The notes under the pieces: model-generated
Database searches by the model: none
Seen by the model: the letters and a program-made list of their open reading frames with translations, nothing else
Told to the model about the DNA's origin: nothing
Source of the DNA: Shigella phage ESh25
Length of the DNA: 64,000 nt
Direction: 5' to 3' (one strand)
Sequence record: ON528735
Made by a program: the position numbers and the translations under genes
Shown: in pieces, positions 9,970 through 21,393 of the stretch
Layout of the letters: each line of letters opens with the position of its first letter
How positions within the stretch are numbered: the first letter of the stretch is position 1

Positions 9970-9999
9970 ACTATAACACAACACGAGGGACTTGTAAAC
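9970..9999 (-). promoter_or_regulatory. sigma70-type early promoter (-35 GTTTAC, -10 TATAGT); part of a duplicated 54-bp cassette
   Basis: Minus strand GTTTAC, 17-18 nt, TATAG(T); 53/54 identical to 25270-25323. Confidence 0.55.
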
Positions 10000-12056
10000 T
10001 ACATTTTGAACTTTTTAGACATTCCGTTGATGTTAACCAAAGAAGCTAAGATTTGAGAAACTTCGCTTTCCTCTTCTTTTGATTCTTCTACAAGGAATTG
10101 ATTAAATCCAGCCATTGGACGAAATTCACCAGTTTCCATTAGATGGTCGCCATCATATACTGATTCTTCTAATTGTTCAGAAGGAGGAACGATTGTACCT
10201 TCGATTAGATACTTATTATAAGCAGTTTCTTTCATAAAGTAAGTACTTACTTTATTAATCTTCAGTAAAATTCCACGTGGTAGAATAACTTCAGCTTCTG
10301 ATGGAAATCCTGACAAATGACCTGGAACGATAACTTTAACTCGTTCAGCTCCTTTAATTACCATACCCACGCTAGTTTCTGCATCTTCATTAGCATATGT
10401 AGAATGACTACCCATATGCATCAAATCTTCTGCATCAACGGAACCTTCTCCTTCACCAGAAAATACTGCGCCGGAATCATCTAGAGCCATATAGTTTTTA
10501 CCATGCTCACCGAAGATATTTGGTTTAAGCGATGTGGATACGAAGTTCTTGAAATAGAACATTTTGTTTTCAATGTTATGACGCAAAGTTTTAAATGTAA
10601 CTTCTTGTCCACGGTAAAGTGTAGTTCCTGGAGGAAGAACTGAACCTTTAGCGAATGCAGAATCAAGCGTCTCGATGTGCTTAATAGCACGTTCCATATA
10701 TTCTTCACGGGTAGAATCCGGTTTACCTAAAAGGAACGAGTTCATTTCAACATATGAATCTGCGCAATAATCTTCAATTACATCAGACTCAGCCTGAGTC
10801 AATCCTTTTGGAGTTACTTCAGTGCTTGCATATTCATACGCCTGAGCAGCGGATTCATCAATTAATTTATAAATTCCATTCATTACAAATTGAATAATAG
10901 CTGTCTTTTCATCTGGCGTAGCTTTAGAACCTTTAACTAAATCATTGATAATTTTCTTAATAACATCAAAACTATTAGAAATATTAATATCAGCAAGATC
11001 GCTTAAAATTTTATCAGTTTTATAATCAAAGAATTCTTTATTCTTTAAATATTCTTGAGAACCTTGATATGTTATATCGCTCTGCAACTTGATAGATGGA
11101 TCACGTAAACGTGCATGGGCTAATGCAATATGATTTCGGAAGCTTTCTAGTTCATAATCGTTAGATTTAAAACGAGAAGCACTTCTCATACCACCGATAG
11201 CTCCTTTGCTGAAGTTTGAACCAATCTGAATAACGCCAGAGTTCATTGGTCCTTCTGCTTTATATACCGGAACTTTAGATTCAAACTCTTGATATTTCTT
11301 AGCAGCGAAGCTATCACCCTGAAGTGAAGCATCAACAGTAGAATATTGAGCTTGTGCTGCTAATCGACGACTAATTTTAGTTTTCTGAATAACAGCTTGA
11401 TCCGTACGCTTATCATTTTCTAAAGCAATAGAAGCAGCAACTGCGACAGCTTTAGGAACAGCATTACCTGTTTTAACGTCTACATAAACATCACCGACTT
11501 TCGATTCAACTTTTGTGAATAACTCAGTTGAAATAGGAGGTACACCTGGAATGTCTTCTAAATTGGCATTTTTACGGTAAACCATAATATATGCATATTT
11601 CTTATCATAGTCCCAGATTTCCTTTAAAAGAACATATCGACCTGCTCCTTTAGTACGTACTAAACGGTCAGCAATAACTTGCATTTGACGAGCAGCGCCG
11701 TTTGTTTTACTTTTTAGTACGCGGAATAGGCATGCATCAATTTTATACTGTTTCATTGTTTGAAGAGCAGTATCAAAAACCGCATTAATGACACCAATTG
11801 GATTTCCACCCAAGTTTTTAAGCTTAACTAACGATAATTTCTCGTTGACGCCTATCATTACGATATGCATCATTTTGTCGCCTGGCTTAACGTTTTTATT
11901 CGTATCACCGCCAGAGGTGTATGTACAAAATCGAAATCCAGGAAGAACGCTTTCTTCACCGGCTTGAATAGCAAAAATTTGAGGTATTTTATGCTTAGGA
12001 TTTAAGTTAACAACCGGCGCCGAAGCGCCGTCAAATAATTCTGTAATAAGTTCCAT
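9999..12056 (-). CDS. Alt-family ADP-ribosyltransferase paralogue (685 aa)
   Basis: C-terminal R-S-E ART triad (YRGQ, FVSTS, EAEVILPRG); N-terminal ~230 aa similar to the adjacent alt; divergent middle. Confidence 0.8.
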   Translation of the reverse strand: MELITELFDGASAPVVNLNPKHKIPQIFAIQAGEESVLPGFRFCTYTSGGDTNKNVKPGDKMMHIVMIGVNEKLSLVKLKNLGGNPIGVINAVFDTALQTMKQYKIDACLFRVLKSKTNGAARQMQVIADRLVRTKGAGRYVLLKEIWDYDKKYAYIMVYRKNANLEDIPGVPPISTELFTKVESKVGDVYVDVKTGNAVPKAVAVAASIALENDKRTDQAVIQKTKISRRLAAQAQYSTVDASLQGDSFAAKKYQEFESKVPVYKAEGPMNSGVIQIGSNFSKGAIGGMRSASRFKSNDYELESFRNHIALAHARLRDPSIKLQSDITYQGSQEYLKNKEFFDYKTDKILSDLADINISNSFDVIKKIINDLVKGSKATPDEKTAIIQFVMNGIYKLIDESAAQAYEYASTEVTPKGLTQAESDVIEDYCADSYVEMNSFLLGKPDSTREEYMERAIKHIETLDSAFAKGSVLPPGTTLYRGQEVTFKTLRHNIENKMFYFKNFVSTSLKPNIFGEHGKNYMALDDSGAVFSGEGEGSVDAEDLMHMGSHSTYANEDAETSVGMVIKGAERVKVIVPGHLSGFPSEAEVILPRGILLKINKVSTYFMKETAYNKYLIEGTIVPPSEQLEESVYDGDHLMETGEFRPMAGFNQFLVEESKEEESEVSQILASLVNINGMSKKFKM

Positions 12057-12059
12057 GAT

Positions 12060-14156
12060 TTATCCTTGAACGAACTTGTAAGGCATGTTTGTAATATCTA
12101 TGCAAGACGCAATAATTCCAAGAGATGATTCTACTTTCTGTTTAACGTTTGATGAAACAAATGATGCAAAGTCAACTCTGTCTTCTATTTCAATATCACC
12201 TGTCATTGCAACTACTTCACCGGTTTCCATTAAATGGTCTCCGTCATAGATTACCGATTCGGTGAGCTCTTCCGTGGTCATAACTTCAGCTTGAATGAGT
12301 TTTGTATTATTAGATGTTGTTCCGTCATTATTAGAAGCATCAGTTATTTTATTAACTTTGACCATCAATCCACGCGGTAGAATAACTTCAGCTTCTGTTG
12401 CTATTCCGAGACTTCCTGGATATACAACATTAACTTTATGAGCTCCATCAATTGCCCATCCTATTTGAACTTTAACGTATTCAGGATTTTCTTTATACGC
12501 TCTTATTTCGTTTGGATTAATAGTTATTCCTTCTTCATTTTTATCAACTGTTAATTCATTGCGAGCTTCTGGTTCTAAAAGACCAATACCAGCATGTGTG
12601 ATTCCAAAACGTCCAAAAATGATAGGAGTTAAAGAAGTAGATACAAAATTTCTGAAGTAGAACACTTTATTTTTAACTAACGCTTCATATATAGGAGCAG
12701 TCATACTTTGAGCACGATAAACTGTAATGCCTTCTGGTATACGGTCACCATTTTCAAAAGCTGAATCTAAGTTATTTATAGCAGATTCAATTTCTTTTTC
12801 ACTCATTACATCATATCGTTCTGGATTGTAGCGGCCTAAAAGAAGATTATTGATGTCAGTATATCCTGAACCGCAATATTCTCTAATGCCACGCTTTTGC
12901 GATGGAGTATATTTAGAACCATCACGGGCAATAGTAATATCAATCATTGGACCTGCACCAATTCCGGAAAAGCTATAAATCATTCGTTTGAGGAATTTAG
13001 TTTTTGCTGCGTTCCAAGAATTTTTAGTTATTTCTTCCCAGACTTCATCTGGCTGCCCTTTACGAGTTTTATTATGTTTATCAAGCCAATTATCTTTATA
13101 TTCTTCAAAGAATTGATTAACAGCTGCTGCGTATTTCTCTAAACATTTTATTGAAGTAGTTGGTTCATTTTTAATCGCATTAAGAATTACATCTTTAATT
13201 TTTTCAGAAACTTCATTAACCTCACTTTTTGAAAAGAATTTATAGTCATAGTGAAGTTCATCTGCAGTTCCTTCGGCAATAATTTTTGCTGCCTTAGTTT
13301 TAGAAGCTAATGAATTAATTCCAAGCTTCATTTCTTCTGCTTCGGGAATTAAAGGAGCGGTAGCAGGTTTATTAAAATTAGCTGCTGTAGATTCATACTT
13401 CTGGAATAATTCACTTTCAAATCTAGAAGATTCCAATGATTGACTTTGCGCAATTGCTCTACGGGAAATTTTAACTTTAACGATTACAGCTTGGTCAGAA
13501 CGTTTATCATTTTCTTGTGCAATAGATGCTGCAATTGCCTCATTTTTAGTTACTTGAGCTCCAGTATCTTTATTGATATAAACATCACCAACCTTCGATT
13601 CAACTTTAGTAAAGAGCTCGGTACTAATTTCAGGAACTCCTGGAATGTCTTCTAATGATACGTTTTTGCGATGTATAAGAATATATGCATACTTTTTATC
13701 GTAATCCCAGAGTTCCTTAAGAAGGACGTATCTGCCACCTGAACGACTACGGATAAGTCTATCAGCAATAACTTGAATTTGTCGAGCTTGGCCAGCAGTT
13801 TTAGACTTAAGAATACGAAGCATACAAGCATCAATTTTATATTGACGCATTGTTTGCATTGCAACAGTAAAAACTGAATTGATATAATTAATTGGGCTTG
13901 GACCAAGACCTTTTAATTTAGCAATTGAACCTTTAGCAGTTAATGTAAAAGGAACAATATGCATCATTTTATCGCCCATCTTTAAATCACGATTAGTATC
14001 ACCTCCAGATGTATAGGTACATAAACGAAAGCCTGGTTGTTCAATTGCATCATCAACATGAACTGAAAAAATTTGCGGTATTTTCTTCTTTGGATTTAAG
14101 TTTGTAATCGGAAGAGTAGTATCTTCGTCAAATAATTCTGTAATAAGTTCCATCAT
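12060..14156 (-). CDS. alt: Alt ADP-ribosyltransferase (injected internal head protein that modifies host RNA polymerase)
   Basis: 698 aa; R-S-E motifs YRAQ, FVSTS, EAEVILPRG; late promoter upstream; T4 position between 54 and 30. Confidence 0.85.
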   Translation of the reverse strand: MMELITELFDEDTTLPITNLNPKKKIPQIFSVHVDDAIEQPGFRLCTYTSGGDTNRDLKMGDKMMHIVPFTLTAKGSIAKLKGLGPSPINYINSVFTVAMQTMRQYKIDACMLRILKSKTAGQARQIQVIADRLIRSRSGGRYVLLKELWDYDKKYAYILIHRKNVSLEDIPGVPEISTELFTKVESKVGDVYINKDTGAQVTKNEAIAASIAQENDKRSDQAVIVKVKISRRAIAQSQSLESSRFESELFQKYESTAANFNKPATAPLIPEAEEMKLGINSLASKTKAAKIIAEGTADELHYDYKFFSKSEVNEVSEKIKDVILNAIKNEPTTSIKCLEKYAAAVNQFFEEYKDNWLDKHNKTRKGQPDEVWEEITKNSWNAAKTKFLKRMIYSFSGIGAGPMIDITIARDGSKYTPSQKRGIREYCGSGYTDINNLLLGRYNPERYDVMSEKEIESAINNLDSAFENGDRIPEGITVYRAQSMTAPIYEALVKNKVFYFRNFVSTSLTPIIFGRFGITHAGIGLLEPEARNELTVDKNEEGITINPNEIRAYKENPEYVKVQIGWAIDGAHKVNVVYPGSLGIATEAEVILPRGLMVKVNKITDASNNDGTTSNNTKLIQAEVMTTEELTESVIYDGDHLMETGEVVAMTGDIEIEDRVDFASFVSSNVKQKVESSLGIIASCIDITNMPYKFVQG

Positions 14157-14176
14157 AGCCTCTCTAGTGTTTATTC

Positions 14177-14184
14177 TATTTATA
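14177..14184 (-). promoter_or_regulatory. late promoter TATAAATA upstream of alt
   Basis: Minus strand TATAAATAG about 20 nt before the alt ATG; Alt is a late, packaged protein. Confidence 0.55.
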
Positions 14185-14189
14185 AAATT

Positions 14190-14206
14190 AAAGGCCCGAA
14201 GGCCTT
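14190..14206 (-). terminator. hairpin terminator (GGCC-UUCG-GGCC plus U-rich tail)
   Basis: Directly after the stop of the 62-aa ORF; followed on minus strand by TTTAATTTTAT. Confidence 0.5.
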
Positions 14207-14394
14207 TAGTAATCTAGTGGTAAGAGAGTACGATATATTTCAAACTTTGGTCCTTTTTCATAGGCATCAAATGTTTCTGTAAATTTATTATAAGCGTATG
14301 CATCTACAAATTCGAGAATGACTTGTGATACAGAAGTAGAAACATCTCCACCTTCTTTTTGAGCAATGACAATTGTTTCTAAGTAAGCTTTCAT
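14206..14394 (-). CDS. hypothetical protein (62 aa), alt.1 position
   Basis: Start overlaps the ligase stop. Confidence 0.55.
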   Translation of the reverse strand: MKAYLETIVIAQKEGGDVSTSVSQVILEFVDAYAYNKFTETFDAYEKGPKFEIYRTLLPLDY

Positions 14395-15854
14395 AAACCA
14401 GTTACCTCATGAAAATCACCAAATACATCCTCGAATGTATTAGCTTTAGTTTTATCTTCACGTAAACGAATCGCAATCGGAAGAAATAATTTAACGTAAT
14501 CAGTGCGGCCATCAGATTTTAACCAACCGTTGCATTCGCACTCTAGAATTTTTCCAATATAATAATTTTGGTTTTCCATAATGCGAGTACGGTCAAGTTC
14601 ATGTGATTTTACGCCGGCTTTGTCTTTTAAGCCTGAACCAGCATTTACCTTAATTTTTCCACACTCTGACTCAAGAATAAATCCACCCGCTTTAGTAGGG
14701 TCTTTACGGTGAGGATAAATTCCTACAATTTTTAAATCAACATCAATTACTTCTTTAAATTTATAAAGATTTTTTGAACGAGCATTTTCCCATAATCCAT
14801 CGATATTTTTGAGAATAATACCTTCAAGACCTTGGTCAATATACTTTTTATAAATTACCTTAGCTTCATCTAGGTTATTTACTACCTGGTTTTCAATTAA
14901 AATTACTTTATCATAACCTGATGTCATTTGTTCTAGTTTAGAAAAACGTACATCATATTTCAAACGAAATGCAGGAAGACCGTATATTTCTACCAACGGG
15001 ACATAATCCCAAACCTGAAACTTCATGCATTGAGCTTCTTTTTCAGAAATGGTTCCTTTTAAGGATTTATTGGCGATTCCATTAGAAGTAGTACGAGATT
15101 CCGCTACTTCGGCGAATTCTTTAGCTTTACTAATTTCAGGATAAGCATTAAAAAGAAAATCTAGGCCTTCTGGTTCCTTTTTAACTTGCTCATGGTATAC
15201 CAATTCGCCATCAATTAACACACCTTCTGGATGAATCTGGCGGGCTTCAGCAGTCATTTTGATTAACTCTTCCTTAAGAAGATCTAATCCTAGATATTCA
15301 TTACCAGCTCGTGATAAAAGACGAACATCATCTAATTCATCGCCTCGGACTTCAGCAAAACACCGGGCTCCATCTGCTTTTAACTGCGCAAAGGCTGGAA
15401 ACTTGATATTCTTACTAATGCCCTTTTCATCATAAGAACTTGCCAGCATTTGAGGTTGTTCAGGAATTAAACCTGGCCAAACTTTGTTTGCAATAGATAC
15501 TGAAGCACCGCATTCAAGGTCTCGCATCATCACTCGACGCAAAACTTCAACATCATCCTTTTTACCATCAGTGATATATCCAGTTAATTCCTCAATTGCA
15601 GCATTTCCAGTCAATTTCCGAGTAGCTAACGTGAATTCAATGAAATCAAGCATATCGGTAATGGTCAGCATTCCAAAACTCTGGGTAGCAATACCAGGTT
15701 TAGGCCATTTCTTGATATAATACTGTAACCCACGAGAATAAGTCAGACGATATACTCGTTTAAGCAATTCATTATCTTTATTCTTTTCAAGAATTGCTTG
15801 CTTCTGCTTAGTTGATCCAATAGATGCTATTTCATTCAGAATTTTAAGAATCAT
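14391..15854 (-). CDS. 30: ATP-dependent DNA ligase gp30
   Basis: 487 aa, same as T4 ligase; KADGAR adenylation motif. Confidence 0.95.
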   Translation of the reverse strand: MILKILNEIASIGSTKQKQAILEKNKDNELLKRVYRLTYSRGLQYYIKKWPKPGIATQSFGMLTITDMLDFIEFTLATRKLTGNAAIEELTGYITDGKKDDVEVLRRVMMRDLECGASVSIANKVWPGLIPEQPQMLASSYDEKGISKNIKFPAFAQLKADGARCFAEVRGDELDDVRLLSRAGNEYLGLDLLKEELIKMTAEARQIHPEGVLIDGELVYHEQVKKEPEGLDFLFNAYPEISKAKEFAEVAESRTTSNGIANKSLKGTISEKEAQCMKFQVWDYVPLVEIYGLPAFRLKYDVRFSKLEQMTSGYDKVILIENQVVNNLDEAKVIYKKYIDQGLEGIILKNIDGLWENARSKNLYKFKEVIDVDLKIVGIYPHRKDPTKAGGFILESECGKIKVNAGSGLKDKAGVKSHELDRTRIMENQNYYIGKILECECNGWLKSDGRTDYVKLFLPIAIRLREDKTKANTFEDVFGDFHEVTGL

Positions 15855-16120
15855 TGTTCATCCTTCAGAGTTTGATTTACAGCTCTATTATAAATCAATT
15901 CATCATTAAGCTCAGTTAAAGACCTATGATATGTAGTTCTAACTTTATTTCCTTGCATCCAGTGCTTGATATAAATGAAACCTTGCTCTACACATTTTTT
16001 AAAAATTCGTTCGTCTTTTTGAGCTCGGAATTCTGGATTGCATCTAAAGAATTGATTTACGTGACCGTAATCACGCGTAGTATTACCTTCATTTTCATAA
16101 ATAGTGTGAACGACAAACAT
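15851..16120 (-). CDS. hypothetical protein (89 aa), 30.1 position
   Basis: Overlapping start/stop with neighbours. Confidence 0.6.
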   Translation of the reverse strand: MFVVHTIYENEGNTTRDYGHVNQFFRCNPEFRAQKDERIFKKCVEQGFIYIKHWMQGNKVRTTYHRSLTELNDELIYNRAVNQTLKDEQ

Positions 16121-16959
16121 TAGAATGCTCCTTGGAAAATATTATCACCACAAGTAGGTCTATTATACAAATACTCTATGCCACCAGGTTTAATATAGTT
16201 CCATGTCTGAAACGGATGTGTCTGATATGGATGATATAGATGATTATAAGGATTAAACCCAGGAGTTCTCCAGGTAGTGTTCCAAGGAAAAGAATCATTT
16301 TTAATCATCTTTTCAATTACATCTTTTATAGCTTTTTCACTATCAAAACTTTCTTTATTTTCCTTCGGTGAAAAAAGTTTATTTTCTACATCATTCCATG
16401 TATAAACTCGCTGCGCAGTTTTTGGAATATTGTCACGCTCTCCTCGAGCCATCCAATAAACAGGAACATTTAATATTTCACTCGCATGATCGCAATGATG
16501 CGCGAGATCGTCAATATAACAAATTACGTTATATTTCTCTTTTGCCTTTTTGAACAACTCTTCTTTTGAAGAATCATGACCACACATCAATACTTCTGAG
16601 AAGGCACCAGGAAAAAGAGCATTCAAATTAAATTGACGATTTAGCAGAGCGTCAATAGAATCACCCAATGCTGTAACAGCTACAAAATTATAATCTTCTT
16701 TTAATTTGTTAATTACACACAGGGCATCTTTATACGGAGACAAATAGCGAATAAAATCTGAACGATTATACTTTTCGATTAATTTAACACCAAGTTCTTC
16801 ATCGCAATTAAAGAGCTTACCAGGAGAAATAAATTTTTCGTCCTGAATCATTTTTAAAATATGTTCCAACGGAAGATTATATTTTTGGGCAAAATAAGGA
16901 AGACCTGATTGCCAGCTTAAACATACACCATCAATATCAGTCAAAATAGTAGGCTTCAT
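16120..16959 (-). CDS. HAD-superfamily hydrolase-like protein (279 aa), 30.2 position
   Basis: N-terminal ILTDIDGV (HAD motif I) and later YIDDLAHH (motif IV-like). Confidence 0.6.
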   Translation of the reverse strand: MKPTILTDIDGVCLSWQSGLPYFAQKYNLPLEHILKMIQDEKFISPGKLFNCDEELGVKLIEKYNRSDFIRYLSPYKDALCVINKLKEDYNFVAVTALGDSIDALLNRQFNLNALFPGAFSEVLMCGHDSSKEELFKKAKEKYNVICYIDDLAHHCDHASEILNVPVYWMARGERDNIPKTAQRVYTWNDVENKLFSPKENKESFDSEKAIKDVIEKMIKNDSFPWNTTWRTPGFNPYNHLYHPYQTHPFQTWNYIKPGGIEYLYNRPTCGDNIFQGAF

Positions 16960-17420
16960 AGAGAGTCTCTTAATAGGTTTAACACATCAATAAATTCAGC
17001 TTCGGTTAGTATTGTATCATCTTTTGTTAGACTACTAGCCATGCTGTGCTTCAAAACTTTTCCTTTCGAGGCTTGTAATGCATCACGAAAGCCCTTGTTT
17101 TGAATCGCTGCCTCAAAATACGCATTTGTGTATAATTCTTTCCACGCTGTAGAGTATCTTGAAAACGGAACTCCGAGCCAGAAGAGGGTCCCACGGTCCT
17201 GAGCTCTAGCATAAGACCTTCCAGCTTGTTGGGCGGCAAGCCCGGATAACCCAAATACACGACGCTGCTGTTCAACATTTTTCACCTTACATCCTTGGAG
17301 GAATCCTTCGAGACCTCCAAATTGGATACCATCCATAACAAAAGGCCATTGGGCGAAATTACTTAATGCGCATGATGGCCATTTAAAATTGCTTCTAATC
17401 TCTAACTCAGACATTTTCAA
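16956..17420 (-). CDS. NADAR/YbiA-like domain protein (154 aa), 30.3 position
   Basis: ALSNFAQWPFVMDGIQF...LEGFLQGCK resembles the E. coli YbiA core DFSNFAAWPIKVDGKTW...SEHYFQAQK. Confidence 0.5.
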   Translation of the reverse strand: MKMSELEIRSNFKWPSCALSNFAQWPFVMDGIQFGGLEGFLQGCKVKNVEQQRRVFGLSGLAAQQAGRSYARAQDRGTLFWLGVPFSRYSTAWKELYTNAYFEAAIQNKGFRDALQASKGKVLKHSMASSLTKDDTILTEAEFIDVLNLLRDSL

Positions 17421-17613
17421 TACTTATAATTTCAACATCAGCCCAATGACCATAGCAAGGAAGACGAAATTCAACTGGCCAGTTAGGGTCCTTTTCTAAT
17501 ATAATAGACTGAACTTGTGGCTCTTCATATTCATCGGTATACGGACCTTTATACGTTACTTTATATGTGACCTTAATATACTGAATTCCAAAAATCTTAT
17601 TAATTATATTCAT
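17407..17613 (-). CDS. hypothetical protein (68 aa)
   Basis: ORF in operon-like array with overlapping ends. Confidence 0.5.
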   Translation of the reverse strand: MNIINKIFGIQYIKVTYKVTYKGPYTDEYEEPQVQSIILEKDPNWPVEFRLPCYGHWADVEIISIENV

Positions 17614-17807
17614 ACTAATTCCTTTAATCCGTAAATAGGAGATAATTCATCGCCCATACGAAGGTCTTCATTTCCATCTACCCAGGAAACAATATAAGCC
17701 TCTTTTATTTGAATACCACTCCATTTAAATGGAGGTAGAACCTTAGAAATTAATCCAGGTATACCAACTCCCTTTAATTCAACAGTTTGACCTAAAAAGA
17801 ATTTCAT
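17610..17807 (-). CDS. hypothetical protein (65 aa)
   Basis: ATGA-type overlap with neighbours. Confidence 0.5.
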   Translation of the reverse strand: MKFFLGQTVELKGVGIPGLISKVLPPFKWSGIQIKEAYIVSWVDGNEDLRMGDELSPIYGLKELV

Positions 17808-18145
17808 TAGAACCTCATCTGAAAACCGTGCGATTTAACATTACCGCCACCAATATCAGAGATATTAATTTCGCGCGCAATTGAAGGGTCAATGTCAATT
17901 TCACGATTGAGTTTAGTGATAGCTAAAGTATCGCGCCCATTTACAGTACGGAACTCTAAAGGGCAGACTACATTAACGTAGTTTTTAATCGATTCACTGG
18001 TAGGTTGCAAATGAGCAGGAAGGTCTTTAGGCGCCTTTGAGAAAACAACTTCACAGAAATTTTTGCGGGTATCAAAATAAGTAGTCATAAACATAATATT
18101 TTCCTCAGTAAGGGGCCGAAGCCCCTGTTTTATTTTAAATATCAA
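17807..18145 (-). CDS. hypothetical protein (112 aa; possibly starts at internal Met, 18094)
   Basis: GC-rich UUCG hairpin at 18107-18122 lies inside the track N-terminus, suggesting the later start with GAGGAAAA Shine-Dalgarno. Confidence 0.5.
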   Translation of the reverse strand: MIFKIKQGLRPLTEENIMFMTTYFDTRKNFCEVVFSKAPKDLPAHLQPTSESIKNYVNVVCPLEFRTVNGRDTLAITKLNREIDIDPSIAREINISDIGGGNVKSHGFQMRF

Positions 18146-18500
18146 ATTCGTTAAGAACTACATCAAAGATTGCTTCAAGATGCTCAGGTTTAGCTCTGTT
18201 ACTCAGAATATGACGAATCCAAGTTTTAACCAAAAGCTTGCGATTATCACCATTCCAGCAAGGATGAGTCCCTAAATCGCGTTGACGAAAATCATCATCC
18301 AGAGCGATTTTGAAGTTTGAACCTTCCATTGTGATTGAAACCGTGATGCCATTTTCAAATCGCATATAAACGTAGTTAGGAGTCATATACTGTTCAATTT
18401 CGCATACTGATCCATTTTGATGTTTCCAAAGGCAGATAGTATCAATAGAACCTGCAATACCATTAGAAACATATTTACGTTCAAAGTTGATGTAGTTCAT
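18135..18500 (-). CDS. hypothetical protein (121 aa)
   Basis: GGAGAA Shine-Dalgarno; early promoter upstream. Confidence 0.55.
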   Translation of the reverse strand: MNYINFERKYVSNGIAGSIDTICLWKHQNGSVCEIEQYMTPNYVYMRFENGITVSITMEGSNFKIALDDDFRQRDLGTHPCWNGDNRKLLVKTWIRHILSNRAKPEHLEAIFDVVLNEFDI

Positions 18501-18537
18501 TTTTATTCTCCGAGATGTTTAATTGCGGTACAGGTAT

Positions 18538-18566
18538 ATAATATCATATCCTGTACCAAAGTAAAC
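18538..18566 (-). promoter_or_regulatory. early promoter with embedded inverted repeat
   Basis: GTTTAC, 17 nt, TATTAT; inverted repeat GGTACAGG/CCTGTACC brackets the -10. Confidence 0.5.
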
Positions 18567-18568
18567 AA

Positions 18569-18901
18569 TTATTTTACTACTTTCCAGTGCTTCATGTCAA
18601 GTTTACCAACTTTTTTCATCTTCTCAATTAAGCGTTCGGCACGTTGGCGAGCTGTAACATAATACCATTCGCCTAATTCATTTTGTTCAATTTTTCCAAC
18701 GATTACTGTATTCAATTCATAAATCCAACCAGTAAAGAAATTATGAACTTGAATTGTAAAGGTGAAATCTGTTCCCATACCTTCTGTTGTTTCTACTTCA
18801 ATAATATCACCTTCAACTGCCATTAAGAACCACATAGTTTCATCATATTTACCATTGAAGCATTTAGTTTTAACTGTAGCGTTCAGATTAATCGTTTTCA
18901 T
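18569..18901 (-). CDS. hypothetical protein (110 aa)
   Basis: AAGGAG Shine-Dalgarno; own promoter. Confidence 0.55.
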   Translation of the reverse strand: MKTINLNATVKTKCFNGKYDETMWFLMAVEGDIIEVETTEGMGTDFTFTIQVHNFFTGWIYELNTVIVGKIEQNELGEWYYVTARQRAERLIEKMKKVGKLDMKHWKVVK

Positions 18902-18926
18902 TTTATTCTCCTTTGTTTGTGTAAGA

Positions 18927-18956
18927 TAATACTATCACAAAGGAACCATACTGTAA
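18927..18956 (-). promoter_or_regulatory. early promoter with inverted repeat that overlaps the downstream Shine-Dalgarno
   Basis: GTTTAC, 18 nt, TAGTAT; inverted repeat CCTTTGT/ACAAAGG, the 3' arm overlapping AAGGAG. Confidence 0.5.
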
Positions 18957-18977
18957 ACAACTTTATGCAATCTTTGG

Positions 18978-19006
18978 AAAATAAAAAAGGACTCCCGAAG
19001 GAGTCC
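18978..19006 (-). terminator. rho-independent terminator
   Basis: Perfect 7-bp stem GGACTCC with UUCG loop, followed on minus strand by TTTTTTATTTT. Confidence 0.75.
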
Positions 19007-19011
19007 TCAAC

Positions 19012-19188
19012 TTATGCTTTCTGCTTACCAAAACGAGAAGCATCATCTCGAAGAACCGCACGTGCTCGGCGCATGATCTTCTCAACAGTTTGATTGATAC
19101 GAGAGTTCGACCCACGCTTGTAGCCAGCGCGTTTAGAATCACCAACTTTCTTTTCAACTGCTTTCTTTGCTTTAGCTTGTTTTGCCAT
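19012..19188 (-). CDS. small lysine/arginine-rich basic protein (58 aa from MAKQ; track gives a 72-aa extension)
   Basis: Highly basic composition; start ambiguous between 19188 and 19230. Confidence 0.5.
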   Translation of the reverse strand: MAKQAKAKKAVEKKVGDSKRAGYKRGSNSRINQTVEKIMRRARAVLRDDASRFGKQKA

Positions 19189-19478
19189 TATAAATTCTCT
19201 TTTAAATGAAAATGCAGGACTTATTGGCATTGCCTGCGCAAGCCCTCAAGGGGAACATAGGTTTTTGGATATTTAACGACCAGGATAACCATAAACCTCG
19301 TCAACATACCACCAAGACTTACACAGATAACACTTTTCTGACGCATGATAGTAACATTCAAGAGGTACACCGTAAAACTGCCGGGGTCTTAAAACTATAA
19401 TGATTCGCAAATCATTAATCAGACAGTTCGACGGCTCCTCGATTTTAGCTCACACTAAGGCAGTGAATCTCCAATAAA

Positions 19479-19727
19479 TTACTTCAGTGTTACCACAAAG
19501 TGACGAACTGCTTTTCGTGCAGCAGAAGCCAGAGGCTTAGCATACTTAAGTTCATCTTTTTCCTGAAGCTCAGCAGCTAATGCAGTTTGAGCAGGATTCA
19601 GATGTTTGAAATAACGCAGAATTTCAAGAGCTTCGGCTTCAACATCAATAGATGCGCCATAGTTTTCGTGACCATTATTCCATGCGTTTCGTTGCAGTTC
19701 AAGAGCGTGTTGTAATTGTTTAATCAT
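19479..19727 (-). CDS. rIII: rIII lysis-inhibition accessory protein
   Basis: 82 aa, same as T4 rIII; position between genes 31 and 30. Confidence 0.8.
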   Translation of the reverse strand: MIKQLQHALELQRNAWNNGHENYGASIDVEAEALEILRYFKHLNPAQTALAAELQEKDELKYAKPLASAARKAVRHFVVTLK

Positions 19728-19874
19728 TTAAAAATTCTCGTTAGAGATTAAAACTCGGTAGTCACGTTCTTCTGAATTTCATCTTCTTTCGACAGATCTC
19801 TCAGTTGTAGACTACCACATAGAATTGTTCGGTTAACTTATTATTCCGACACCCAATTCATATTATTATTTATA

Positions 19875-20210
19875 TCACTTATAAAGACACGGAATAGCTT
19901 TATAGTGACAGGTAACGAATTTTTGTTTAATTTCTTTTGGCTGCTTAAGACCCAGAGCTACAAAAGGATGCGGAACATTTCGAATTTGACCAACTGGAAG
20001 AGAAGTCAAATCACCAACTTCGCAGAAACCTTCAGGAACATCAGGACCGACAGAGTGAACTACACACAGTTCAGGAACTTCACCTTGAACACGTTTACCG
20101 ATAATAAGTCCTGATTCTGTAACTTCTTCATCACCGGCTTGTGCGGGTTCAGAAACTAAAATAACATATTCACCGACAGCACGAATTGGTAGCTGTTGTA
20201 CTTCAGACAT
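19875..20210 (-). CDS. 31: gp31 co-chaperonin (GroES analogue for capsid folding)
   Basis: 111 aa, same as T4 gp31; middle-promoter-like element upstream. Confidence 0.85.
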
Positions 20211-20240
20211 CGTTTTTCCTTTTTGTTAACAGATGAATTA

Positions 20241-20267
20241 ATAATAACAAATAATTCTTAAAGCATT
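20241..20267 (-). promoter_or_regulatory. middle-promoter-like element for gene 31
   Basis: Minus strand AATGCTTTA (perfect MotA box), 12 nt, TATTAT. Confidence 0.5.
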
Positions 20268-20575
20268 TATTTACCAATAAATTGGAGTAAATGCTCAACT
20301 TTCATACCATTAACAGAAATCAATTTGTTAATAGAAAAACCTCGCCACTCGCCAAGCTCAACATCAAATACTGGAATCATATCAGTAGATTCTTTCCGAG
20401 TAGATTCAGTCAATTTACCGGTTTGCATTGTTGGCATAAAGTCTGCATCACGAGTACCTTTCATGGTACGAATAGTACCATCAGACTTTTCAAAAACCAC
20501 GTTTGAAATACCCATGGACAATTTAGTTTTCAAAATTTCACGAATTGCTACTTTCTGCTCAGTTGTCAGTTTCAT
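20267..20575 (-). CDS. hypothetical protein (102 aa), 31.1 position
   Basis: ORF contiguous with neighbours. Confidence 0.55.
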   Translation of the reverse strand: MKLTTEQKVAIREILKTKLSMGISNVVFEKSDGTIRTMKGTRDADFMPTMQTGKLTESTRKESTDMIPVFDVELGEWRGFSINKLISVNGMKVEHLLQFIGK

Positions 20576-20812
20576 TTATTTACCTATTACAGTTTTAATA
20601 TGGGTTGTTCCACGTTCTTTAAGAGTGGAAAGCAATTTTTGGCATTTTTCTAAATCAGATTTCCAACTATATGGTCTATCAATACTAGTCCAATCAGTTT
20701 TATAATACTGTTTCCATTTAGAGAAAAAATATTTCTTATACTCTACAGCAAACGAGATGTTCTCATTAGAATAAGAACTAATTGCTGTGAGTTGTACCAA
20801 ACGAAATTTCAT
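20576..20812 (-). CDS. hypothetical protein (78 aa), 31.2 position
   Basis: Start overlaps the cd stop. Confidence 0.55.
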   Translation of the reverse strand: MKFRLVQLTAISSYSNENISFAVEYKKYFFSKWKQYYKTDWTSIDRPYSWKSDLEKCQKLLSTLKERGTTHIKTVIGK

Positions 20813-21393
20813 TATTCACCACAGAATTCGTTGATATTTTCCCAGTTTAACTTATTCAAGTTTTTCTTAGGAACATTAAACACTTCAATACCTGCATTTC
20901 GCAGAATATCATCCCAGCCAGGTTTATTTTTATCATATGTTTCGCAATAAACCAGCTTTTTAATACCAGATTGAGCTATCGCTTTTGCACAATCTGGACA
21001 AGGAGAAAGTGTTACATACATAGTAGCACCTTCAATAGAAGAGCCATTTCGTGCAGCAAACAAAATCGCATTTAGTTCAGCATGAATTTCATTTTTAGAC
21101 GACCATTCAGAGTGAGCGCTCCGGTGTTCTTTTGCCAAGACAAAGCGATCAGTTGAACCAAATGATACGCATTCAGGCTTATGGCCTTGAATGATAGTAT
21201 GTTTAGGCTTATTCAACAACCAACCTTGCTCAGCAGCATAATCACAACAGTTCACACCACCAGCAGGTGAACCATTATATCCGGTAGAAATAATACGTCC
21301 ATTCTTTTCAATTACTGCTCCTACCTTCCAGGAGCAACATTTTGATTCCTGGGATACTAAATATGCAATTTGAAGTACTGTACTCGCTTTCAT
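20812..21393 (-). CDS. cd: dCMP deaminase
   Basis: 193 aa, same as T4 Cd; zinc-binding HAE and PCPDC motifs. Confidence 0.9.
   Translation of the reverse strand: MKASTVLQIAYLVSQESKCCSWKVGAVIEKNGRIISTGYNGSPAGGVNCCDYAAEQGWLLNKPKHTIIQGHKPECVSFGSTDRFVLAKEHRSAHSEWSSKNEIHAELNAILFAARNGSSIEGATMYVTLSPCPDCAKAIAQSGIKKLVYCETYDKNKPGWDDILRNAGIEVFNVPKKNLNKLNWENINEFCGE

Follow-up and report, generated by a model that had tools for sequence, protein, structure and literature searches.

An intact ortholog of the T4 anti-DarTG1 gene adfN in Shigella phage ESh25, encoding a predicted NADAR-fold enzyme

The adfN gene and its product

In this work we analysed a stretch of 64,000 nucleotides from Shigella phage ESh25 (sequence record ON528735), called the window below, and describe a minus-strand gene that corresponds to gene 30.3 of phage T4, now named adfN. 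The coding sequence occupies 16956..17414 and comprises 152 codons and a stop codon (16956..16958), with the reading frame intact. An earlier interpretation made from the letters alone, the sequence-only reading, had described a 154-residue open reading frame (ORF) with similarity to the NADAR protein YbiA. The ORF is real and the quoted peptide ALSNFAQWPFVMDGIQFGGLEGFLQGCK is present in its translation, but the start was placed two codons too early. The mechanical ORF opens at TTG 17420, with an ATG two codons further in at 17414..17412, and we rejected the TTG in favour of the ATG on the basis of the T4 annotation and the N-termini of homologs. The ATG is likely to be the true start, because T4 lists gene 30.3 as 459 bp and 152 amino acids, because homologs open with MSELEIRSNF, and because the published numbering of residues E36 and K43 is compatible with this start only. 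The two extra codons, TTG AAA (17415..17420, minus strand), lie inside gene 30.4 and are probably untranslated as part of adfN.

The window represents a T4-like genome of the genus Tequatrovirus. Around the gene it matches numerous genomes of this genus at 97-98% identity, those of Sf24/Sf25, NBEco003, RB51/RB68 and wV7 among them, and the DNA over adfN and both of its gene junctions is 98% identical to T4. The adfN product aligns with T4 gp30.3 (NP_049816) free of gaps and with 147 of 152 residues identical (97%). The five substitutions (K11R, V53I, T89P, M125I and S128G) are conservative or fall at variable positions, and all lie at columns that vary among homologs. In Pfam the product matches PF08010 (Phage_30_3), the family of T4 gp30.3, over profile positions 1-138 of 138 (E=2.5e-69; 231.9 bits, cut-off 36), and its match in PHROGs is phrog_652, of unknown function. 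The database records listed for its homologs all carry the label 'hypothetical protein'.

We conclude with high confidence that the gene is orthologous to T4 adfN, is intact and encodes a single-domain NADAR-fold enzyme, and that this allele should act as the T4 one does. The gene is thus a fresh sequence of an already characterised protein, whose role against DarTG1 has been published. T4 gp30.3 was identified by experiment as the anti-DarTG1 factor AdfN (PMC11825919; PMC11125620; bioRxiv 10.1101/2025.11.20.689424). Phage crosses mapped DarTG1 resistance to gene 30.3, which was then renamed adfN (Johannesman et al., bioRxiv 2024; Nat Commun 2025;16:1598). In the same study, deletion of adfN sensitised T4 and T2 to DarTG1 by about 4 logs, ectopic AdfN rescued phage RB69, and AdfN removed ADP-ribose from DNA and showed no binding to DarT1. 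In the published work adfN is necessary and sufficient against DarTG1. The published version adds, using T4-GT7, that DNA hydroxymethylation and glucosylation are dispensable for AdfN action. A 2025 transposon-sequencing preprint independently found adfN to be conditionally essential on DarTG1 (bioRxiv 10.1101/2025.11.20.689424). The suggestion in the sequence-only reading that the protein counters DarTG is therefore borne out through the 97%-identical T4 ortholog, for DarTG1 only: the sensitisation by deletion that it proposed to test for is seen in T4 and T2 with DarTG1 and not with DarTG2.

Membership of the NADAR superfamily

NADARs are guanine-N2-ADP-ribose hydrolases that serve as antitoxins of DarT1, and a phage clade among them has been noted (Schuller et al. 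2023, Mol Cell). Membership of the gp30.3 family in this superfamily is supported by a fold search, by profile-profile comparison and by conserved catalytic residues. The fold search with a structure model supported membership of the NADAR fold and placed YbiA among the top structural matches. The hhalign comparison of a 10-sequence gp30.3 alignment with a 29-sequence YbiA alignment gave a probability of 95.5% and E=1.4e-8 over 100 columns, pairing E36 with E48, K43 with K55, G65-R66 with G78-R79 and H123 with H126 (gp30.3 and YbiA, respectively). A pairwise BLASTP comparison with residues 29-83 of E. coli K-12 YbiA found 20 of 57 positions identical (E=6e-6, for a single comparison). It covers exactly the motif quoted in the sequence-only reading, LSNFAQWPFVMDGIQFGGLEGFLQGCK in the phage against FSNFAAWPIKVDGKTWPTSEHYFQAQK in YbiA. 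We judge from these alignments that the resemblance to YbiA exceeds chance, and the parallel with the YbiA core, the NADAR assignment and the alignment of the catalytic Glu and the phosphate-binding Lys all held up.

The direct sequence searches speak against this assignment. The Pfam NADAR profile PF08719 does not match the adfN product even at E<=10, phmmer of the product against PDB sequences found nothing, and nothing was found for it with PADLOC and NCBIfam. When PDB sequences were searched with profiles of the gp30.3 family, YbiA ranked first or close to first, but with E values of just 0.057 and 0.13, scores equalled by chance matches such as P450 and Ypt GTPases. Within the gp30.3 family, PF08719 matches 3 of 10 members, all weakly (best E=0.0031). 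The decisive evidence for NADAR membership consists of the profile-profile and fold comparisons only, which detected what the direct searches had missed. The search with PF08719 that had been proposed as a check, in which the product matches PF08010 only, would if taken alone have wrongly rejected the NADAR idea. A plain Pfam scan conceals the kinship because the phage clade is kept as a separate Pfam family, and this calls for caution when such proteins are annotated. Several bacterial YbiA-like proteins (P0055, P0098, P0105, P0131, P0135 and P0142) have precomputed matches to both PF08719 and PF08010, and the two families therefore overlap in sequence space.

The similarity to YbiA raises the question whether the phage protein shares the metabolic role described for it. 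The gene of E. coli YbiA (PDB 2B3W; PF08719) lies in a host operon under LexA control, and the enzyme is described as an N-glycosidase of riboflavin intermediates, so that a YbiA-type enzyme in the phage would act on reactive intermediates of the riboflavin pathway, in nucleotide or cofactor housekeeping rather than in defence evasion. This would agree with the position of YbiA among the top structural matches, with YbiA being the sole PDB sequence touched by the gp30.3 family profile, and with the alignment of the motif. But YbiA carries an additional conserved loop (E125...D130-x-Y132-W133-G134) that is a 13-residue gap in the phage proteins. Its residues D130, Y132, W133, G134, G136 and G137 are invariant in the YbiA alignment, and the hhalign match ends at YbiA residue 130. 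Moreover, the substrate of the T4 ortholog is guanine-ADP-ribose in DNA, and phage without this ortholog shows a DarTG1-specific phenotype. A metabolic role is almost certainly not the explanation. On these alignments the phage protein is not a member of the YbiA subfamily, and the term YbiA-like in the sequence-only reading stands for the superfamily but not for the subfamily, given the missing segment and the phage-type His described below.

Conserved residues and the C-terminal helix

The residues important for AdfN are present in the window copy. The codons of E36 to K43 (EGFLQGCK; 17286..17309, minus strand) encode the catalytic Glu and the phosphate-binding Lys in the motif E-x3-Q-x2-K. 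We investigated conservation in 13 diverse phage sequences, among them those of Aeromonas, Acinetobacter, Vibrio, Klebsiella, Shewanella, Ochrobactrum and Krischvirus phages. The residues E36, R86, H123, T134, L136, T137, E140, L145 and R149 are invariant in these homologs, whose identity goes down to 33%. Position 43 is a Lys, or an Arg in two of the 13 homologs, and Arg is able to stand in for the equivalent Lys (Schuller et al. 2023).

The codon of H123 lies at 17046..17048 (minus strand). It is probably the His that replaces, in phage NADARs, an acidic residue that is E125 in the Phytophthora nicotianae NADAR and D171 in the E. coli C7 NADAR. Schuller et al. (2023) described a His in phage NADARs at the position occupied by Glu in YbiA-type proteins and by Asp in DarT1-linked ones, and Johannesman et al. 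likewise pointed it out. The sequence profiles in hhalign set H123 on YbiA H126, which adjoins E125, and not on E125 itself.

The C-terminal helix (residues 138-151; codons 16962..17003, minus strand) is intact and is modelled as a helix in the structure model. It comes after the invariant T134-I-L-T137 and carries the invariant E140, L145 and R149. In RB69 the allele is annotated as 137 amino acids, and our frame analysis finds a stop directly after TILT137, with the helix sequence EAEFIDVLNLLRDS going on in the +1 frame, so that through the frameshift the three invariant residues are lost. In T4 AdfN, E36A, K43A and an RB69-like truncation each impair the protein (PMC11825919).

RB69 is a natural inactive allele and raises the possibility that the window allele is likewise non-functional or weakened, the more so as some phage records match residues 1-146 only. 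We consider this highly improbable. The window copy runs parallel to the T4 gene up to a stop at the same place and retains all invariant residues, including the three of the helix, and its five substitutions are confined to variable columns. All 17 tested T-even phages with full-length adfN alleles were resistant to DarTG1. The records with the shorter match come from Escherichia phages vB_Eco_F27, EC.W2-1, UFV09 and PEC04. They may represent alleles with altered or truncated C-termini and could be sensitive to DarTG1 like RB69.

Expected activity against DarTG1

The intact gene, its orthology, its fold and its conserved residues are observations on the window allele itself, and from them we infer that this allele behaves as T4 AdfN. 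Upon infection of a DarTG1 host, DarT1 puts ADP-ribose on the guanine N2 amino group of single-stranded phage DNA, and this modification blocks phage replication. AdfN would hydrolyse the bond between base and ribose, freeing ADP-ribose and restoring replicable DNA. It would do so as an enzyme, without binding to DarT1. In this scheme E36 would touch the distal ribose, K43 would coordinate the phosphates, H123 would substitute for the acidic residue of other NADARs, and the C-terminal helix would be required for full activity. The phage is predicted to be resistant to DarTG1.

Several published observations weigh against so simple an account. All experiments were done on other alleles, the enzymatic and phenotypic data covering those of T4 and T2 only. 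T4 gp30.3 strips guanine-linked and not thymine-linked ADP-ribose in vitro, but it fails to rescue DarT1 toxicity in uninfected cells (Cihlova et al. 2024, Toxins), so that the rescue by expression proposed in the sequence-only reading already has a negative answer. According to the published version of Johannesman et al., AdfN barely helps non-T-even phages, and an additional factor encoded by T-even phages was proposed. The missing detoxification in uninfected cells and the small benefit to non-T-even phages together imply that more than simple glycohydrolase activity is involved. The E36A and K43A mutations abolish rescue only in part in the published version (PMC11825919), and the catalytic mechanism of AdfN is therefore not fully defined. 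The T-even specificity of AdfN is a question of the published system and not of the window.

The same gene block might be thought to encode the T-even helper of AdfN, for example gene 30.2, whose product is a HAD-fold, phosphatase-like protein with four of four catalytic motifs conserved and a disordered tail of 80 residues. The adjacency of 30.2 and adfN is kept in Tequatrovirus, Mosigvirus and Lazarusvirus. Krischvirus, Biquartavirus, Jiaodavirus and the Vibrio, Shewanella and Ochrobactrum phages lack it, which argues against a helper at this place, and a helper within the block is very unlikely. We rejected gp30.2 as a partner, as beyond the HAD fold nothing ties a phosphatase to the removal of ADP-ribose from DNA. 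Searching the PDB with the gp30.2 sequence was uninformative.

A comparison with known systems places AdfN as an orphan. DarG1 (E. coli C7; Geobacter lovleyi, PDB 8BAT) is a darT1-associated NADAR antitoxin, whereas adfN has no darT next to it, its neighbours being T4 genes 30.4 and 30.2 and no PADLOC defence model matching there. AdfN is shorter than DarG1 (152 against 219 amino acids), does not have the N-terminal extension seen in DarT1-linked NADARs, probably has its His in place of the catalytic Asp (D171), and is no substitute for DarG1 in uninfected cells. The NADAR of Phytophthora nicotianae (PDB 8BAU, in complex with ADP-ribose) is eukaryotic, is 17% identical and carries E125 at the probable position of the phage His. 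NADAR-Bas32 and NADAR-Bas60 also act on guanine-ADP-ribose, but belong to other NADAR clades and are active without phage infection. AdfA (gp61.2) binds DarT1 rather than repairing DNA, and AdfM (Tk.4) is a macrodomain protein directed against DarTG2, which modifies thymine; tk.4 was identified as the anti-DarTG2 factor in the preprint of the transposon-sequencing study (bioRxiv 10.1101/2025.11.20.689424). All of these phage proteins, AdfN included, shield phages from DarT toxins. The window contains neither of these two genes: searches gave no match to adfA (61.2) at E<=1e-3 and nothing better than E=0.6 for adfM (tk.4).

It is established for T4 that T-even phages evade a DNA-ADP-ribosylating toxin-antitoxin defence with a domesticated, orphan copy of the enzyme that serves as the antitoxin. 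For annotation, the gain is that the gene can be labelled adfN, anti-DarTG1 NADAR DNA ADP-ribosylglycohydrolase, in place of 'hypothetical protein'.

Gene neighbourhood

The gene order in the window is that of T4: alt-like, alt-like, alt.1, ligase (gene 30), 30.1, 30.2, 30.3, 30.4 ... 30.7, rIII and 31. As in the T4 and RB69 annotations, adfN is flanked by 30.4 and 30.2 and lies upstream of ligase, and the window copy shares with T4 its neighbours and its start and stop overlaps, as well as E36, K43, H123 and the C-terminal helix. The stop of 30.4 (TGA 17409..17407) and the start of adfN (ATG 17414..17412) overlap within 17407..17414 (minus strand; ATGTCTGA), which suggests translational coupling. 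At the other end, the adfN stop and the start of gene 30.2 share an ATGA at 16956..16959 (minus strand). Both overlaps are consistent with a tightly packed transcription unit, and adfN is presumably co-transcribed with the leftward block of packed, partly overlapping genes from 30.9 to ligase. A scan of 14000..21000 for promoter and terminator consensus sequences found no enrichment (23 promoters against 25.4 and 5 terminators against 3.9, window against shuffled sequence), and we therefore draw no conclusions on expression from it.

Although the overall counts do not exceed those of shuffled sequence, a near-consensus sigma-70-like site, TTGACA-18-TAAAAT (11 of 12 positions), lies just upstream of gene 30.7 at 18600..18571 (minus strand), and terminator-like sites with a GC-rich hairpin and a T-run, at 19008..18987 and 14208..14189 (both minus strand), flank the block from 30.8 to ligase. 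These sites might delimit the unit that contains adfN.

Within adfN, in the +1 frame, lies ORF 30.3' (75 amino acids; 17051..17278, minus strand), which the T4 annotation describes as 'internal translation in a different reading frame'. We did not accept it as a genuine second gene. The frame is open in the window and in T4, but a stop breaks it in RB69 and Aeromonas phage 44RR2.8t lacks it, and its conservation beyond close relatives is not supported by these sequences.

The ligase gene occupies 14391..15854, and the sequence-only reading had correctly placed adfN near alt genes. Two Alt-like ADP-ribosyltransferase genes stand in tandem at 9999..12056 and 12060..14156 (both minus strand). Their full-length products have 698 residues with 70% identity to T4 Alt and 685 residues with 41%. 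T4, by contrast, has a single alt together with alt.-1 and alt.-2, short fragments left by an old duplication.

The two Alt-like genes, 3-7 kilobases (kb) from adfN, leave room for a wider scope of AdfN, in which it would remove guanine ADP-ribose attached by other ADP-ribosyltransferases, such as other host defence toxins, or by the phage's own Alt-family enzymes as a collateral modification of nucleic acids, possibly besides its role against DarTG1. T4 gp30.3 removes in vitro the guanine ADP-ribose attached by an unrelated transferase, ScARP (Cihlova et al. 2024), and a placement close to ligase and Alt is found again in Acinetobacter phage Berthold. No data tie Alt to modification of guanine in DNA, however. 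Biquartavirus, Jiaodavirus and Schizotequatrovirus, as well as the Shewanella and Ochrobactrum phages, do not keep the adjacency, and on K-12 without DarTG1 the adfN gene is not required (bioRxiv 10.1101/2025.11.20.689424). We regard such a wider scope as unlikely, though not negligibly so.

Distant homologs and their synteny

A tblastn search found adfN homologs in 1510 phage records, roughly half of which fall under 60% identity; the hosts are Escherichia, Klebsiella, Aeromonas, Acinetobacter, Vibrio and others. Their genomic context varies. Acinetobacter phage Berthold has the order 30.3-30.2-ligase with Alt nearby, and in Krischvirus MIZ2 gene 30.3 comes immediately before ligase. In Aeromonas phage 44RR2.8t (L004, 4001..4450) and Klebsiella phage KP182 (L009, 5001..5450) the homolog is not near ligase but within a cluster of transfer RNA genes, which lie a few dozen to about 150 bases from it. 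The homolog precedes gp46/47-type endonuclease genes in a Vibrio phage, follows rIIA/rIIB in a Shewanella phage and precedes a helicase in an Ochrobactrum phage.

Synteny of adfN with alt and ligase is thus kept in four genera and lost in the other five lineages sampled. We rejected a functional link of adfN with alt or with ligase drawn from proximity, as the synteny is lineage-specific and gives it no support. The nearness of alt, which the sequence-only reading had remarked on, is not kept in distant homologs.

In two of these phages, genes for Nudix hydrolases lie 3-4 kb from the adfN homolog (Berthold, L007 1862..2389; KP182, L009 9509..9955). The proximity is possibly due to chance, but a Nudix enzyme could dispose of the ADP-ribose freed by AdfN, and the gene in Berthold bears the annotation putative ADP-ribose pyrophosphatase (nudE).
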